A stretch of 64,000 nucleotides of DNA from Chiloscyllium plagiosum (Eukaryota), in NCBI RefSeq assembly GCF_004010195.1, contig NC_057719.1, forward strand, positions 48,718,914-48,782,913, written 5' to 3'. Under the pieces are notes generated by a model. The model did no database searches. It was given only the letters and a program-made list of their open reading frames with translations, and was not told the origin of the DNA. Positions 1-13,400 of this stretch are shown piece after piece (positions within the stretch are counted from its first letter, which is position 1; every line of letters starts with the position of its first letter). The translations under genes were made by a program, and so were the position numbers.

Positions 1-737
1 CCAGAGTCTTATACAACTGCAATATGACCTCAGTACTCCGGAACTCAATTCCTCTACCAATAAAAGCCAGTATGCCGTATGCCTTCTTCACCGCACTATT
101 TACCTGGGTGGCAACTTTCAAAGATTTGTGTACATGGACACCAAGATCCCTCTGCTCATCCACACTACCAAGTATCCGACCGTTAGCCCCGTACCCCATC
201 TTTTTATTACTCTTACCAAAGTGAATCACCTCACACTTAGCTACATTGAACTCCATTTGCCACCTTTCTGCCCAGTTCTGCAGCTTATCTATATCCCGCT
301 GTAACCTGCCACATCCTTCCTCACTGTCTACAACTCCTCCGACTTTCGTATCATCCGCAAACTTGCTCATCAACCTTCTAACCCCTCCTCCAGGTCATTT
401 ATAAAAATGACAAACAGCAATGGTCCCAAAACAGATCCTTGCGGAACACCGCTAGTGACGGCACTCCAAAATGAACCTTTGCCGTCAACTACTACCCTCT
501 GTCTTCTTCCGGCCAGCCAACTCCTAATCCAAACCTCCAACTCACCCTCAATGCCATACCTCCGTATTTTTGGCAGTAGTCTACCATGGGGAACCTTATC
601 AAATGCCTTACTAAAATCCATATACACCACATCTACCGCTTTCCCCTCGTCCACCTCCTTAGTCACCTTCTCAAAGAATTCAATAAGGTTTGTGAGGCAC
701 GACCTGCCCTTCACAAAACCATGCTGACTATCCTTGA
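1..737 (-). mobile_element. CR1/HER1-type LINE ORF2 reverse transcriptase fragment, 5'-truncated exactly at the array motif; continues off the window
   Basis: ORF 370-714(-) has the CR1 RT motifs [27 protein letters not shown] and [14 protein letters not shown]. The sequence continues into FADD-region and downstream CR1 sequence toward position 1. Confidence 0.95.
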
Positions 738-751
738 CACTCCTGTTTATA

Positions 752-1156
752 ATATTTTATTAAACAAATTACAAAATAATTTACAAAAAACAGTTAACAT
801 TTACAGCTGTATACAACAGCAATTTTACAAGGGAGAGGAGCAGCAAAGCTAGGCCCCAAACCCTACTGTTCAACCAGTTTACAGGGAAATGAGGACAAAC
901 CACAAATCCCAGTTTCAAAAATAAAAAGACAGCAACAATGACCTTTATACATAAGACAATCCAGTTACATTAAAAAAAAAGTGCAGACAATACAGACCCA
1001 GCAAGCCCCCGTCCCTCCCATCTTCCGGCCACTCTAAGGCAGCCCGCCCCTACCCACCTTCCGGCTCTTGGTCCACCCCATGCCCTTTCCAGTTCTCGGT
1101 CCGCCCTGAGACACCTTTTGACCACCTCTAGGACAGCCCAACAGCGGTCAGGACGG
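752..1156 (-). mobile_element. Unclassified retroposon 3' end (type A), copy 1
   Basis: On the - strand: a GC-rich part, then an AT-rich 3'UTR-like part with AATAAA running straight into TATAAACAGGAGTG. Flanked both sides by CACTCCTGTTTATA. Paralogous to 1171-1710. Confidence 0.7.
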
Positions 1157-1170
1157 CACTCCTGTTTATA

Positions 1171-1710
1171 ATATTTTATTAAATAAATTACAAAATACAG
1201 TTTACAAAAAAAAGTAACATTTACAGCTGTATGCAACAGCAATTTTACAAGGGAGAGGAGCAGCAAAGCCAGGCCCCAAACCCTACCGTTCAACCAGTTT
1301 AAAGGGAGATGAGAACAAACCTCAAATTCCAGTTTCACATATAAAAAGACACAGTGACAATGACATTTGTACATAAAAGGGCAATCCAGTTACATAAAAA
1401 AGTGCATACAATACAGACCCAGCAATCCCCTGTCCCTCCCACCATTCGACCACTCTAAGGCAGCGCGCCCCTACCCACCTTCCGGCTCTTGGTCCACCCC
1501 ATGCCCCTTCCAGTTCTCAGTCTGCCCTGACACACCTTTTGACCACCTCTAGGACTGCCCGCCCCGGTACCTGCCCAGGGTGACAGCGGGCAGGACGGCC
1601 TACCCACCTTCTGGCTTCACTAGCCACCCTCAGCACCTTTCGACCACCTCTAGGGCAGCCCGCCCCGGTACCTGCCCAGGGTAGCCCGCCCCGGTACCTG
1701 CCCAGGACGG
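1171..1710 (-). mobile_element. Unclassified retroposon 3' end (type A), copy 2, longer, with internal subrepeats
   Basis: Aligns by eye with 752-1156 with scattered substitutions and indels. The extra 5' part contains repeated GCCCGCCCCGGTACCTGCCCAGG. Confidence 0.7.
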
Positions 1711-2292
1711 CACTCCTGTTTATTTTTTTCTTTTTTGTTCTTTGTTTTTCTTTGTTGAGCAGAACCTCTGACACTCCTGTTCCTTTTTTTTAAAAAAACC
1801 CACATTACTGCCTAACTGCGGTAGTGCTTATTTTTTCCCCAGCACCCATGTTGTGTGTGTGCAGGTATGAGACACAGGCACTCCTTTTTTTTTACTACTT
1901 CTTTTTTCTTTTTTTATTTTATAGCCAGCTCTCAGAGTGAACAGGATGTTTGACACCCCTGTTTTTTTTCCACCAGCACCCATGTTGTGTGTGTGCAGGT
2001 GTGAGACACAGGCACTCTTGTTTATTATTCACATCAAAGGGCAGTGCTATGTGATCAAAACAGTGAAGGGGAGGGTAGGGACTAAATCAAAATAGAGTTG
2101 GTGGGAGAAATAATGCACTCCACACACTCCTGTTTATTTTTTTTCTCCTTTTTTATTTTTTTTATTTTTTTTCTCTTTTTTTATAATATTAACCCCCACA
2201 CTACCACCTAAGTGCGGTAGTGCTGATAAACACTGTCCTTCACATCAAAGGGCAGTGCTGTGTGATCAAAACAGTGAAGGGGAGGGTAGGGA

Positions 2293-2448
2293 CTAAATCA
2301 AAATAGAGTTGGAGGGAGAAATGATGCACTCCACTCCCTGCGGCGCCCACCTCTCCCTGAACAACTCCAGGGTGTTGGTGGACACTGTGTGCTCCTTCTC
2401 CAAGGACACCCGGGCTCTAACGTAACTGCGGAAGAGGGGCAGGCAGTC
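2293..2448 (-). pseudogene. C-terminal 51 codons of Tx1-like ORF2 (not in the ORF track)
   Basis: Manual translation gives DCLPLFRSYVRARVSLEKEHTVSTNTLELFRERWAPQGVECIISPSNSILI*. This matches the typical Tx1 ORF2 C-terminal pattern (FR..VR.R...E.......L..F...WA..GV.C). Confidence 0.85.
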
Positions 2449-3182
2449 AGCACACTCCTGTTTATTTTATTTTTTTTCTTTTTCTTATTTAAACCCCACA
2501 CTACCACCTAAGTGCGGTAGTGCTTATTTTATCCCCAGCACCCATGGTGTGTGTGTGTGCAGGTGTGAGATACAGTGAAAGACACAAAGTGCACGAATCT
2601 TTATTCAATTTCCACCACCAGGAAGATAGGAAAACACCCGAGTGGCCAGTGACAAACACTGCCCTTCACAGCAAAGGGCAGTGCTGTGTGATCAAAACAG
2701 TGAAGGGGAGGGGAGGGACTAAATCAAAATAGAGTTGGAGGGAGAAATAATGCACTCCACGCCCTGCAACACTCCTGTTTTTCTTTCCCCAGGGTATTGG
2801 TCGACACCGCGTGTTCCTTCTCCAAGGACACCCGGAACACTCCCCTTTATATTCTTTTTTTTTCAGTGACAAACACTGCCCTTAACACTTCTTTTTTTTT
2901 CCTTTTAACCCCCACAATACCACCTAAGTGCGGTAGTGCTTATTTTATCCCCAGCACCCATAGTGTGTGTGTGCAGGTGTGAGACACAGTGAAAGACACA
3001 AAGTGCACAAATCTTTATTCAANNNNNNNNNNNNNNNNNNNNNNNNNNNNNNNNNNNNNNNNNNNNNNNNNNNNNNNNNNNNNNNNNNNNNNNNNNNNNN
3101 NNNNNNNNNNNNNNNNNNNNNNNNNNNNNNNNNNNNNNACACCATGGGTGCTGGGGAAAAAATAAGCACTACCGCAGTGGGG

Positions 3183-3310
3183 TGTAGGTTTGATATCCAG
3201 ACGTTTCGTTACCTGGCTGGGTAACATCATCAGTGGCGACCTCCAAGTGAAGCGCTTCACTGATGATGTTACCCAGCCAGGTAATGAAACGTCTGGATAT
3301 CAAACCTACA
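3183..3310. mobile_element. Penelope-like pseudo-LTR fragment in inverted arrangement, with a minimal hammerhead-like motif
   Basis: CTGATGA-tGTTACC-cagcca-GGTAAT-GAAAC at 3260-3290, with its reverse complement at ~3202-3234. It shares the GAAGCGCTTCAC motif with the Penelope element at 18130-18798. Confidence 0.75.
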
Positions 3311-3918
3311 CCCCACTGCGGTAGTGCTTATTTTTTCCCCTGCACCCATGGTGTGTGTGTGCAGGTGTGGGACACAGTGGAAGACACAAAGTGCACCGAT
3401 CTTTATTCAATTTCCACCACCAGGAATATAGGAAAACACCCGGGTGGCCAGTGACAAACACTGCCCTTCACATCAAAGGGCAGTGCTGTGTGATCAAAAC
3501 AGTGAAGGGGAGGGTAGGGACTAAATCAAAATATAGTTGGAGGGAGAAATGATGCACTCCACTCCCTGCAGCCACACTCCTGTTTATTTATTTATTTATT
3601 TATTTATTTTCCTTTCAAATCTTTATTCAAATTCCACCACCAGGAAGATAGGAAAACACCCGGGTGAAAACTCCCCTTTTTTTTATTTTAACCCCCACAC
3701 TACCATCTAAGTGCAGTAGTGCTTATTTTATCCCCAGCACCCATGGTGTGTGTGTGCAGGTGTGAGACACAGTGAAAGACACAAAGAAAGAAAGGGCAGT
3801 GCTGTGTGATCAAAACAGTGAAGGGGAGGGTAGGGACTAAATCAAAATAGAGTTGGAGGGAGAAATGATGCACTCCACTCCCTGCGGCCGCACTCCTGTT
3901 TATTTATTTATTATTTTT

Positions 3919-4178
3919 TAAACAGGCCCTTCGGCCCAACAAGTCCACACCGACCCGCCGAAGCGCAACCCACCCATACCCCTACATTTACCCCTTAGTA
4001 TGACCTGACCCTGCACATCTTTGGATGGTGGGAGGAAACCGGAGCACCCGGAAGAAACCCACGCAGACACGGGGAGAACGTGCAAGCTCCACACAGTCAG
4101 TCGCCTGAGGCGGGAATTGAACCCAGGTCTCTGGCGCTGTGAGGCAGCAGTGCTAACCACTGTGCCACCGTGCCGCCC
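3919..4178 (-). mobile_element. HE1-type tRNA-derived V-SINE with a non-canonical A-rich tail, inserted at the array target site
   Basis: On -, it starts GGGCGGCACGGTGGCACAGTGGTTAGCACTGCTGCCTCACAGC (A box; B box GGTTCAATTCC) and ends GGGCCTGTTT plus an A-rich tail. Nearly identical to 46294-46613 apart from an internal deletion and the tail. Confidence 0.95.
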
Positions 4179-4279
4179 ACACACTCCTGTTTATATCTGT
4201 CAGTCAGGACTCCCTGATTGGACCAGGTTAACTCATATTGAATGAGGTCCACCTGGCTGACCTTGTTCCAATCATTCCA
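4179..4279 (-). promoter_or_regulatory. Upstream half of the insertion target: LTR-U3-like sequence with CCAAT and TATA boxes
   Basis: The - strand reads ...GTTAACCTGGTCCAATCAGGGAGTCCTGACTGACAGATATAAACAGGAGTGT. This is the only motif copy not preceded by a retroposon 3' end. The LTR assignment is inferred from the CCAAT/TATA layout. Confidence 0.55.
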
Positions 4280-5465
4280 CTCCAACATGAGGGCTTGGAG
4301 ATGGCAGTGACCATGCCATCAAGAGTGAAATTGTGGATATTGTCCCCACTACCTGTTTTAGTCCAGGGTGGAAAAGCGAGAGGGGGCCTTCCTCCCTAGA
4401 GGCCAATTGAAGCCCATAGGTGGCTATTCTATTCATTAATTTGGTTCATACAATAAGACACAGAACTGATCTTGGAGAAGTAATATTTAATAGATGGTTT
4501 CTATCAAGTTTTTAAACATATCAATTAAAATCATTATAAAGACCATCCCTTTGGAGAAGATATTACAATATCAAATAAATTAAGAAATAAAATGAGTCCA
4601 TGTATCTTGTGCTGTATTTATGAAAAGGTCTGTACAGTTGCTTAACAAAAATGCAAATTCCAGCAAGCTCATGTGATGTGCTGTCTTATCTGACCAGTAG
4701 GTAAATTTGTGAGTAATTAAAATCAACTGGTCTAGCTGATCCTGCCTTTAGCTATTCCATTAGTTAATTATCTCCCCACTTGGTGTTAAAAATGCCTGTT
4801 CAGTGACACCAAGAGTCAAAGAAAGGAGCTAAATTACTTTAATTATTGAGTAATTGCACACAGCGATGTTAATTAAATCTTGATCAGTTTGACTAAGTGA
4901 ATTGATTTCTCTTACTTAGAATGCAAACCACAGAGAGACAAGCCATTTCATAGTTTAATTAACATTACCTTATCACATCCCCAACATACTAAACAGACAT
5001 TAAACTCAGTTAGGTCTCAGTGATATTTTTCTCTTGTTTTCATACGATGTCAGCAATATTTGCTCCATCACAGTTACAATATATATATATAAAATATGTT
5101 GTTTAACTTTAAGGTTGTATCCTTTGTCATTTCCAGAAGGTGAACATGTAGCATTATTGTGTTCACATTTTCCTCCTGTGAATGCAGGCCATTTTTCTTA
5201 ACACAGAGGGCGACACTGGCTTGGCCCAAGTGATCAATCCCAAAATTAAATAAAAATGCTACTTTTTTAGAGGGGCACAACCAATAAAAACCCAAAGGAA
5301 ACATTTCAAGTTGATATAAAGCATTGTTCACATTCTCCTTTAAAGGCTGCAAAAAGTGCAGCTCAGTTTTATAAAACAAAGAACTGGGGATATTGGAGAT
5401 CTCAAATAAACAAAAACAGAAATTGCTTGTGAAACTCAGCAGATCTGGCATCATCTGTGAGAGTT

Positions 5466-11966: not shown

Positions 11967-12318
11967 GGGCGGTACGGTGGCTCAGTGGTTAGCACTGCTG
12001 TTTCACAGTGCCAGGGACCTGGGTTCAATTCCAGCCTTGGGCAACTGTCTGTGAGGAGTTTACACATTCTCCCCGTGACTGGGTGTGTTTCCACCAGATG
12101 TTCTGGCTTTCTCCCACAGTCCAAAGATTTGCTGGTTATGTGAATTAGCCAAGCTAAATTGCCCATAGTGTTCAGGGATATGTAGGTTAGATGCATTAGT
12201 CAGGGGTAAATGTAGAGTAATAAGGCAGAGGATTGGGTCTAGGTGGGATACTCTTCAGAGGGTCGGAGTTACCTTGTTGGGCCAAATGGCCTGTTTCCAT
12301 GCTGTAGGGATTCTATGA
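11967..12318 (+). mobile_element. HE1-type SINE, full length
   Basis: GGGCGGTACGGTGGCTCAGTGGTTAGCACTG head; GGCCTGTTTCCATGCTGTAGGGATTCTATG tail. Confidence 0.93.
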
Positions 12319-12889: not shown

Positions 12890-13400
12890 ATGGAACAGGG
12901 AGCACAGCAAGTGTGGGCCAAGTCCCAGAGTGGGAGCAGAGCAAGTGTGGGCCGAGTCCCAGAGTGAGCAGCAGAGCGAGTGTGGGCCGAGTCCTGGAAT
13001 GGGGAGCAGAACGAGTGTGGGCCGAGTCCCAGAGTGGGAGCAGAGCGAGTGTGGGCTGAGTCCCAGAGTGGGAGCAGAGCGAGTGTGGGCTCAGTCCTGG
13101 AATGTGGAGCAGAGCGAGTGTGCACCAAGTCCCAAAGCAGGGAACAGAGCGAGTGTGGGCTCAGTCCTGGATTGGGGAGCAGAGCGAGTGTGGGTTCAGT
13201 CCTGGATTGGGGAGCAGAGCAAGCATGGGCTGAATCCTTGAGCAGGAACACAGTGAGTGTGGGCCAAGTCCTGGAGTGGGAGCAGAGCAAGTGTGGGCCG
13301 AGTCCCGGAGCAGGGAGCAGAGCAAGCATGGGCTGAGTCCTTGAGCAGGAACACAGTGAGTGTGGGCTGAGACTTGGAGTAGGAGCAGAGTGAGTCCATG
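12890..13400 (+). repeat. Minisatellite with a ~34-36 bp unit (GGGAGCAGAGCGAGTGTGGGCCGAGTCCCAGAGT), about 14 copies
   Basis: Tandem units are directly visible and explain the repetitive ORFs on both strands. Confidence 0.92.

Follow-up and report, generated by a model that had tools for sequence, protein, structure and literature searches.

Tx1 LINE families that prefer LTR retrotransposons as their target have been published, namely, Tx1-8_Crp and Tx1-4_AMi, both crocodilian (Kojima 2015, PMC4494074). The main text of that paper also relates that relatives have acquired 5' heads time and again and presumably mobilise SINEs to the target that they share, and it carries the proposal that Tx1 families are transcribed from the flanking target. 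Tx1L of Xenopus laevis likewise inserts into another transposon, and R2, which occupies 28S rDNA, depends on transcription of its target, with target sequence in the RNA strengthening integration (both as given in the main text of PMC4494074). One-way head-to-tail arrays are formed at Drosophila telomeres by HeT-A and TART, where upstream sequence buffers 5' loss; TART has perfect repeats of its 3' region near its 5' end (PMC5537684, sections on these arrays).

The locus that we analyzed occupies positions 1 to 4279 of a 64-kb stretch of DNA ("the window" refers to the whole of this stretch). The system to which it belongs shares with the elements of that paper an LTR-element target, repeated 5' additions, and SINE co-targeting (PMC4494074, main text). 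The crocodilian heads are pieces of U1/U2 snRNA, whereas the heads described here are copies of the target's own R region, and the main text of PMC4494074 gives no insertion position inside the LTR element, although its supplementary figures could hold a TATA site. The target of Tx1L is the piggyBac-type DNA transposon Tx1D, whereas here it is a putative LTR promoter. Taken alone, the targeting adds one more example to a known pattern; our literature search, with Repbase and Kojima and Fujiwara 2004 outside its range, listed no paper that describes insertion at a TATA site or the capture of R modules. The locus holds the following features (window positions).

4196 to 4279, minus strand: U3 of an LTR of putative Ty3/Gypsy type, 76 to 86% identical to 39 other scored places.
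4181 to 4195, minus strand: TATAAA (4195 to 4190) and the duplicated target T/ATAAACAGGAGTG(T), where the slash marks the putative nick; placed by motif searches and tail-side comparison.
3902 to 4178, minus strand: first insert, a SINE running from its own 5' end, which we take to be HE1-like (from sequence; family D7/I12 in the window).
1722 to 3890, minus strand: stacked, 5'-truncated 3' ends of Tx1 family 1 (end of ORF2 plus 3' UTR).
3139 to 3300, plus strand: fold-back (inverted) piece of a Tx1 tip beside an N gap (from sequence).
1922 to 1964, minus strand: variant motif AAACAGGGGTG and about 30 nt of the LTR downstream half (1953 to 1922), then an A-tail.
1756 to 1782, minus strand: variant motif and about 16 nt of the LTR downstream half (1771 to 1756), then an A-tail.
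1710 to 1168 and 1156 to 749, minus strand: two truncated 3' ends of a second retroposon family (2470 candidates).
1 to 737, minus strand: LINE fragment, presumably CR1-like, where the host R/U5 should resume (from sequence).

The sequence-only reading had taken the flank of the target to be a multicopy LTR U3, and both parts of that claim held. A query spanning 4186 to 4440 returned 911 candidates; among the 40 that were scored, all but the self-match cover only its last ~100 nt. Empty LTR copies measure 204 to 234 bp, begin with TG, and end in TTTCA (TG...CA ends). Pairs of them lie around 3.6 to 4.6 kb in three loci (L032, L033, and L039), a PBS-like TGGCG/TGGCA comes after 5' copies, and a PPT-like purine tract comes before 3' copies. 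A candidate target-site duplication (4 to 6 bp expected) of the LTR element agrees at 5 of 5 positions in L002 and at 4 of 5 in L024 and L032, and it is poorer in other old copies. The window flank corresponds to the U3 half (4279 to 4190) of an LTR of ~220 bp, with its TG start at 4279 and CCAAT at 4221 to 4217, and it is shorter than most copies through an internal deletion. Counted from the T of the TATA-like motif, an Inr-like TCAYTCT-type motif has its A at exactly 30 nt in 10 of 12 empty copies (the search pattern fell in the wrong place in the remaining 2), and a poly(A)-signal-like AATAAA lies at +73 to +87. This is the geometry of a putative Pol II promoter, with CCAAT, TATA, and an Inr-like motif at +30. 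RVT_1 followed by rve on one strand was found in L036 and Integrase_H2C2 in L038, all below Pfam cut-offs, and the host elements, at less than 4.7 kb, have no room for env. Ty3/Gypsy is the best label for this family, judged by domain order, by size, and by a gag that we take to resemble Ty3/Gypsy gag. The window copy is probably the 5' LTR of a decayed element, since a decayed gag-pol lies on the same strand beyond the window start, past a stretch of N.

The target itself is a short motif. As the earlier reading had it, the one motif copy without a retroposon end in front of it reads CCAATCAGGG-N14-GATATAAA on the minus strand; this string occurs a single time in the 64-kb window, at 4221 to 4190, and 0 times in 100 shuffles. 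At up to one mismatch, AAACAGGAGTG has 13 copies in the window, from 738 to 4192 and all on the minus strand, and it has 15 at up to two mismatches; every motif copy except the one at 4192 is preceded by an A-rich retroposon tail. A 14th match, at 12003, is a look-alike internal to a SINE and was not counted as a target copy. At other loci, the tail-side copy reads ATAAAC, AAGAAC, ATTAAC, or ATGAAC, in keeping with the local LTR variant, and such a comparison of U3-side with tail-side motifs places the probable nick after the first T, at T/ATAAA. This agrees with the earlier claim that the duplicated segment begins inside TATAAA. Two of the 21 loci had no usable anchor for this comparison, and one further locus (L054) is compatible with a nick 1 to 2 nt earlier. 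The second cut falls ~13 to 16 nt downstream of the nick, giving a duplication of 13 to 16 bp.

What lies beyond the site is a pile-up of inserts. The SINE that comes first is 3'-shortened, with an A-rich tail, and the predicted LTR start (TATA + 30, ~4166) would fall inside it. The inserts had been described as all in the sense orientation just downstream of the TATA box, and a full-length LINE had been envisaged there. They do share one direction, with the exception of the inverted Tx1-tip piece at ~3139 to 3300, and truncated LINE 3' ends do follow the TATA box, but further on, the first insert being the SINE. Apart from the SINE, the locus shows truncated pieces and no full-length LINE, and we regard it as a dead accumulation and not as a source element. 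The inverted piece, beside the N gap at 3023 to 3138, is possibly an assembly artefact, and its hairpin drew only sub-threshold miRNA-family matches in Rfam. Within 1722 to 3890, 11 pieces map to the 3' region of one Tx1 copy (L077) at 80 to 99% identity, each with an A-tail and most with the target motif after it. The motif of the unit at 1922 to 1964 is unlike the flanking duplications at 2023 and 1889, and this unit is likely a 3' transduction from another LTR. The LTR piece at 1756 to 1782 has a different spacer type and is likely a second 3' transduction.

At the far end of the stack, the last motif (738 to 748) runs into TCAAGGA, which matches both the LTR R and the CR1-like fragment; this junction may hide a deletion of the LTR downstream half. 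The native R/U5, which had been expected upstream of the window, did not turn up: neither of the loci searched (L031 and L210) contains an LTR half, the DNA immediately beyond the window start reads N, and the same search of loci found no 3' LTR partner. Adjacent stack units often have the same or a similar 5' truncation point (L140, L142, L145, L153, L154, and L160; 1721/1167 and 2023/1889 in the window). Units that share such points are only 90 to 96% identical, and the points may be either microhomology hot spots or homology-guided junctions. The window also contains a 35-bp minisatellite of ~14 copies at 12891 to 13395. Its SINE and CR1 content suggests a shark-like genome.

The multicopy site proved to be a genuine genome-wide target. 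An A-tailed insert is present at the T/ATAAA site in 11 of 29 LTR loci chosen by U3 similarity, which gives the occupied fraction (the script gave 12, of which we removed L021, where the insert at about +24 is another element). Conversely, 16 of 28 Tx1 3' ends have an LTR half no more than 1.5 kb away, against 0 of 36 control tiles. The true share is at least this high, as the queries missed a second LTR variant; 12 of the 28 have no detected LTR half nearby. The motif, at up to three mismatches, follows 16 of the 28 Tx1 3' ends, compared to 2.4 in shuffles. Rows that were the window itself (L001, L044, and L211) or that shared a stack with another row (L055 and L225) were removed before these counts. 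The share of 16 of 28 exceeds the level, 20% of flanks in one repeat, above which the main text of PMC4494074 classes a family as target specific. Broken boxes (TAAGAAC, TATTAAC, and TATGAAC) are occupied too, and solo and 3' LTRs are targeted as well as 5' LTRs.

Other retroposons use the same site. In the second retroposon family, the motif follows 10 of 18 3' ends (0.8 in shuffles), and 9 of 18 lie beside an LTR half. In several copies, the family's own 3' end carries TATAAACAGG, and the opening ~10 nt of the target thus seem to be part of its RNA 3' end. The 3' end of this family reads ...AATAAAATATTATAAACAGG before the A-tail (window 749 to 1710; L218, L220, L224, and L227). The head of the SINE that comes first in the window abuts the motif at 5 places in the genome (control, 0). 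The HE1-like SINE with an A-tail was seen at the Tx1 site in the window and in L231, L233, L234, L235, and L051, which suggests that it is mobilised in trans by Tx1 proteins.

By the sequence of its ORF2, the main LINE is a member of the Tx1 clade. The family 1 ORF2 is 45% identical, over the whole 571-aa query, to YTX2_XENLA of Tx1L (P0004), the top match with an informative name. RVT_1 scores above the Pfam cut-off and Exo_endo_phos and zf-RVT score below it, while matches in the PDB are only to L1 and R2 ORF2 relatives. A CX2CX4HX4C string is visible in ORF1 of one copy (L082), which has no Pfam match. The 5' UTRs of L093 and L082 contain GC-rich tandem repeats of ~100 to 150 nt that vary in copy number and recall L1 monomers.

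To locate full-length heads, we walked upstream of long ORF2 frames and then searched with a head query from which the LTR-like part had been excluded. At least 378 head candidates exist genome-wide, and 40 main-type heads were examined (two of these, L152 and L155, appear to stem from a single insertion that was later duplicated). Of the 40, 33 begin with 3' UTR sequence of the element itself, joined to an R-like module (31 by pattern and 2 by eye); 3 others have the motif and a full R copy, 3 have a UTR piece with an eroded R-like part, and 1 is of another kind. In a second subfamily, the motif and an R copy were found by eye in 18 of 25 matches, 5 of them near-duplicates. Five loci, most of them on small contigs (L166, L167, L169, L170, and L172), carry head-bearing stacks that are nearly identical to one another and probably represent a segmentally amplified locus. 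Overall, LTR sequence from just downstream of the site is present in 36 of 40 main-type heads and 18 of 25 second-subfamily heads.

The heads are layered. Outermost is either a stretch copied from the 3' UTR of the element itself or an upstream tail plus motif; R of LTR variant 1, R of variant 2, and the repeats of the 5' UTR follow, and every layer ends before its own AATAAA. R copies end 6 to 8 nt before the LTR AATAAA, and the UTR piece in main-type heads is cut at a fixed point ~20 nt before the AATAAA of the 3' UTR. An inverted repeat, CACTGCCCTT...AAGGGCAGTG, lies in the Tx1 3' UTR just upstream of this cut point (e.g., window 2655 to 2690). Many Tx1 3' ends stop 15 to 30 nt after the 3' UTR AATAAA (L129, L134, L136, L140, and L154; reference positions 1987 to 2001), a spacing that suggests a functional signal; in a single case (L147, oriented positions 1225 to 1350), AATAAA has become GATAAA in the 3' UTR piece before a full-length head.

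The R-like module of the main subfamily starts 4 to 5 nt past the predicted LTR start, an observation made only in hindsight. In 5 of 5 comparisons, the R copy in a head shows greater similarity to other heads than to the R of its own host, and the R copy therefore travels with the element. The second module aligns to another LTR variant over 45 to 46 of 51 to 53 columns in 3 heads (score, 70 to 72; shuffled maximum, 27 to 29), and it is weak in main-type heads (39 versus a shuffled 23 in L093; 26 versus 25 in L130). A pattern spanning the end of the R module served for reading junctions only, and no frequencies were taken from it. In L175/L202, an intact U3-TATA-spacer-Inr-R precedes the head and shares rare spacer variants with the host; this is a short copy, not a full-length one. 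In 11 of 16 heads judged by eye, the R copy is preceded by a motif unlike the host duplication (in the others, 1 is host derived and 4 are ambiguous), and the copied unit thus began upstream of the motif, in the tail of a neighbor. In short units, a foreign motif is as 3' transduction gives; in the full-length L147 and L157, it would mean that the RNA started, or the template was switched, somewhere upstream of the motif.

The outermost UTR piece behaves differently from the R copy. It ranges from ~25 to 640 nt with no common start, it is 83 to 96% identical to the element's own 3' end, and that end is its best match in 1 of 10 cases; the lean to the own end is slight, with own-end identity above the mean of the others in 8 of 10 pieces. 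A TART-like regenerated perfect 5' repeat was rejected on these identities. Origin of the piece in a long duplication of a preexisting insert was rejected as well: same-start neighbors match the head piece at only 90 to 96% identity, and a downstream twin is lacking in L130, L132, and L134. The 5' piece is more diverged than the own 3' end in 8 of 11 elements, in a weak paired age test driven largely by L125. Mantel tests, with low power, found no association of head lineage with the UTR piece (rho = −0.19, P = 0.89, n = 23) or with its start positions (rho = −0.08, P = 0.73, n = 27); one misaligned locus (L150) was excluded from the age test and the Mantel piece tests. A long inherited leader would be expected to travel with the head lineage, and the UTR piece appears not to do so.

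The relative ages of host and insert bear on what the insertions might achieve. Host LTR pairs are 80, 84, and 85% identical, and the search for host reverse transcriptase gave a best nonself match of 61% and a longest frame of 353 aa among the 150 matches scored of 8276 candidates. Tx1 ORF2 matches are 83 to 98% identical, with frames of up to 1273 aa (some across N), and Tx1 3' ends are 95 to 98% identical; both sets of identities come from best-ranked matches and are biased young. Most Tx1 copies seem to have arrived when the host family was already dead, and on that dating the insertions cannot bring a present benefit by disabling it. The sequence-only reading had suggested that the insertions disable the host element; neither this nor an arms race is supported by these identities. 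It is accordingly very improbable that disabling an active LTR element, by parting its TATA from R/U5, is what Tx1 evolved for. Interruption of 11 of 29 LTRs between TATA and the predicted start would suit it, and the oldest Tx1 subfamilies, with heads 72 to 80% identical, may have overlapped the host's active period, but all host copies sampled are decayed and predate their inserts, and solo and 3' LTRs are hit as well as 5' ones.

Where Tx1 transcription starts is the harder question. The element may have an internal promoter and use the LTR only as a sequence target or safe harbor, with the R-like head arising by template switching or long duplications and either pairing with the target or sitting idle. 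The GC-rich tandem repeats of the 5' UTR could be such a promoter, LTRs with a broken TATA are still targeted, the host promoter is old and diverged, and the UTR piece looks redrawn at each insertion; template switching has, moreover, been proposed for the U1/U2 heads of SINEU (PMC4494074, main text). We nevertheless judge this account unlikely, because three successive 5' layers all derive from the target context and all end before AATAAA, and because R modules are fixed in families with head-specific changes, which means that the modules were inside the transcript. A promoter in the ORF2 end or 3' UTR is less likely still. By that account, which follows HeT-A and TART, an upstream neighbor or the 5' repeat drives the next copy and the LTR only builds head-to-tail stacks. 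HeT-A does promote in tandem (PMC5537684, sections on these arrays), 36 of 40 main-type heads open with 3' sequence of the element itself that ends at a constant cut point, and the full-length L147 and L157 came with an upstream tail and a foreign motif. However, the 5' piece is imperfect and variable in length, unlike the perfect repeats of TART, and the double capture of LTR R is left unexplained.

We favor, with modest confidence, the reading that Tx1 repeatedly enters a likely LTR TATA box and that the LTR sequence of its heads was captured from read-in transcripts of the LTR or of the upstream stack. In target-primed reverse transcription, an APE endonuclease nicks the T-rich strand and poly(A) primes synthesis there. 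The Tx1 endonuclease would do so at this site, fixing the sense orientation of the inserts, and each duplication would create a new target; since the orientation follows from priming on the T-rich strand, it is not separate evidence for promoter use. The LINE had been placed at the transcription start, but the 5' junction falls ~15 nt short of the Inr-like motif, on its upstream side. With an ordinary insertion that far upstream of the start, those bases would be lost at each generation, and only heads with an R copy would restore the start. The R copy would let the end of the cDNA pair with the target and so rebuild TATA-Inr-R before the LINE. R layers could be passed on only by transcripts that began at these layers or further upstream, and a layer would have persisted only if it lacked a poly(A) signal. 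The host, already a fossil, would be a multicopy harbor and a probable promoter source, not a rival being disabled. The R-like heads fit such past read-in transcription; a start at the head's own Inr does not fit the 11 of 16 heads in which the copied unit reached upstream of the motif.

RNA data add little to this. The sequencing runs contain at most 0.31 of the words (RNA-labelled runs, less than 0.1), their organisms may differ from that of the window, and no RNA start sites were seen in the runs examined. At the TATA-R-head locus, one run (X19) placed 165 reads on the LTR, on both strands, with essentially none crossing into the head, and a second (X20) had no reads; two others (X1 and X2) gave nothing at a main-type head. 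The main-type junction was crossed by ~3 to 5 reads on one strand and by one contig, from a run only guessed to be RNA and possibly from a different organism. The promoter hijack proposed from sequence alone thus gains fossil evidence in one respect, in that heads begin with the LTR downstream half cut before AATAAA, and not in others, as RNA showed no start site and a mutated TATA is also occupied. The fuller version of our reading is a Tx1 lineage with no start of its own that lives on a dead LTR promoter, cutting the TATA, rebuilding TATA-Inr-R with captured R, having changed host variant at least once (the two R modules), and having its layers trimmed before poly(A) signals by selection for read-through. 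We regard it as possible but rather doubtful.

R2 combines a restriction-like endonuclease, a Pol I host gene, and release by a ribozyme, whereas the element here is an APE LINE in a fossil Pol II LTR. The fossil heads would fit an R2-like transcription from the target promoter; the RNA runs show no start. For the ORF2 endonuclease, the prediction is that a bottom-strand nick at T/ATAAA would need CAGGAGTG and not a functional TATA, and a multicopy target of 13 to 16 bp whose nick site is defined would lend itself well to work on the sequence specificity of APE endonucleases. If the reading is correct, a vertebrate APE-type LINE would have adopted an R2-like strategy on the Pol II promoter of an extinct retrotransposon, and its 5' end would record successive promoter captures. 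How target-specific Tx1 elements are transcribed, a standing question, would then become directly testable.
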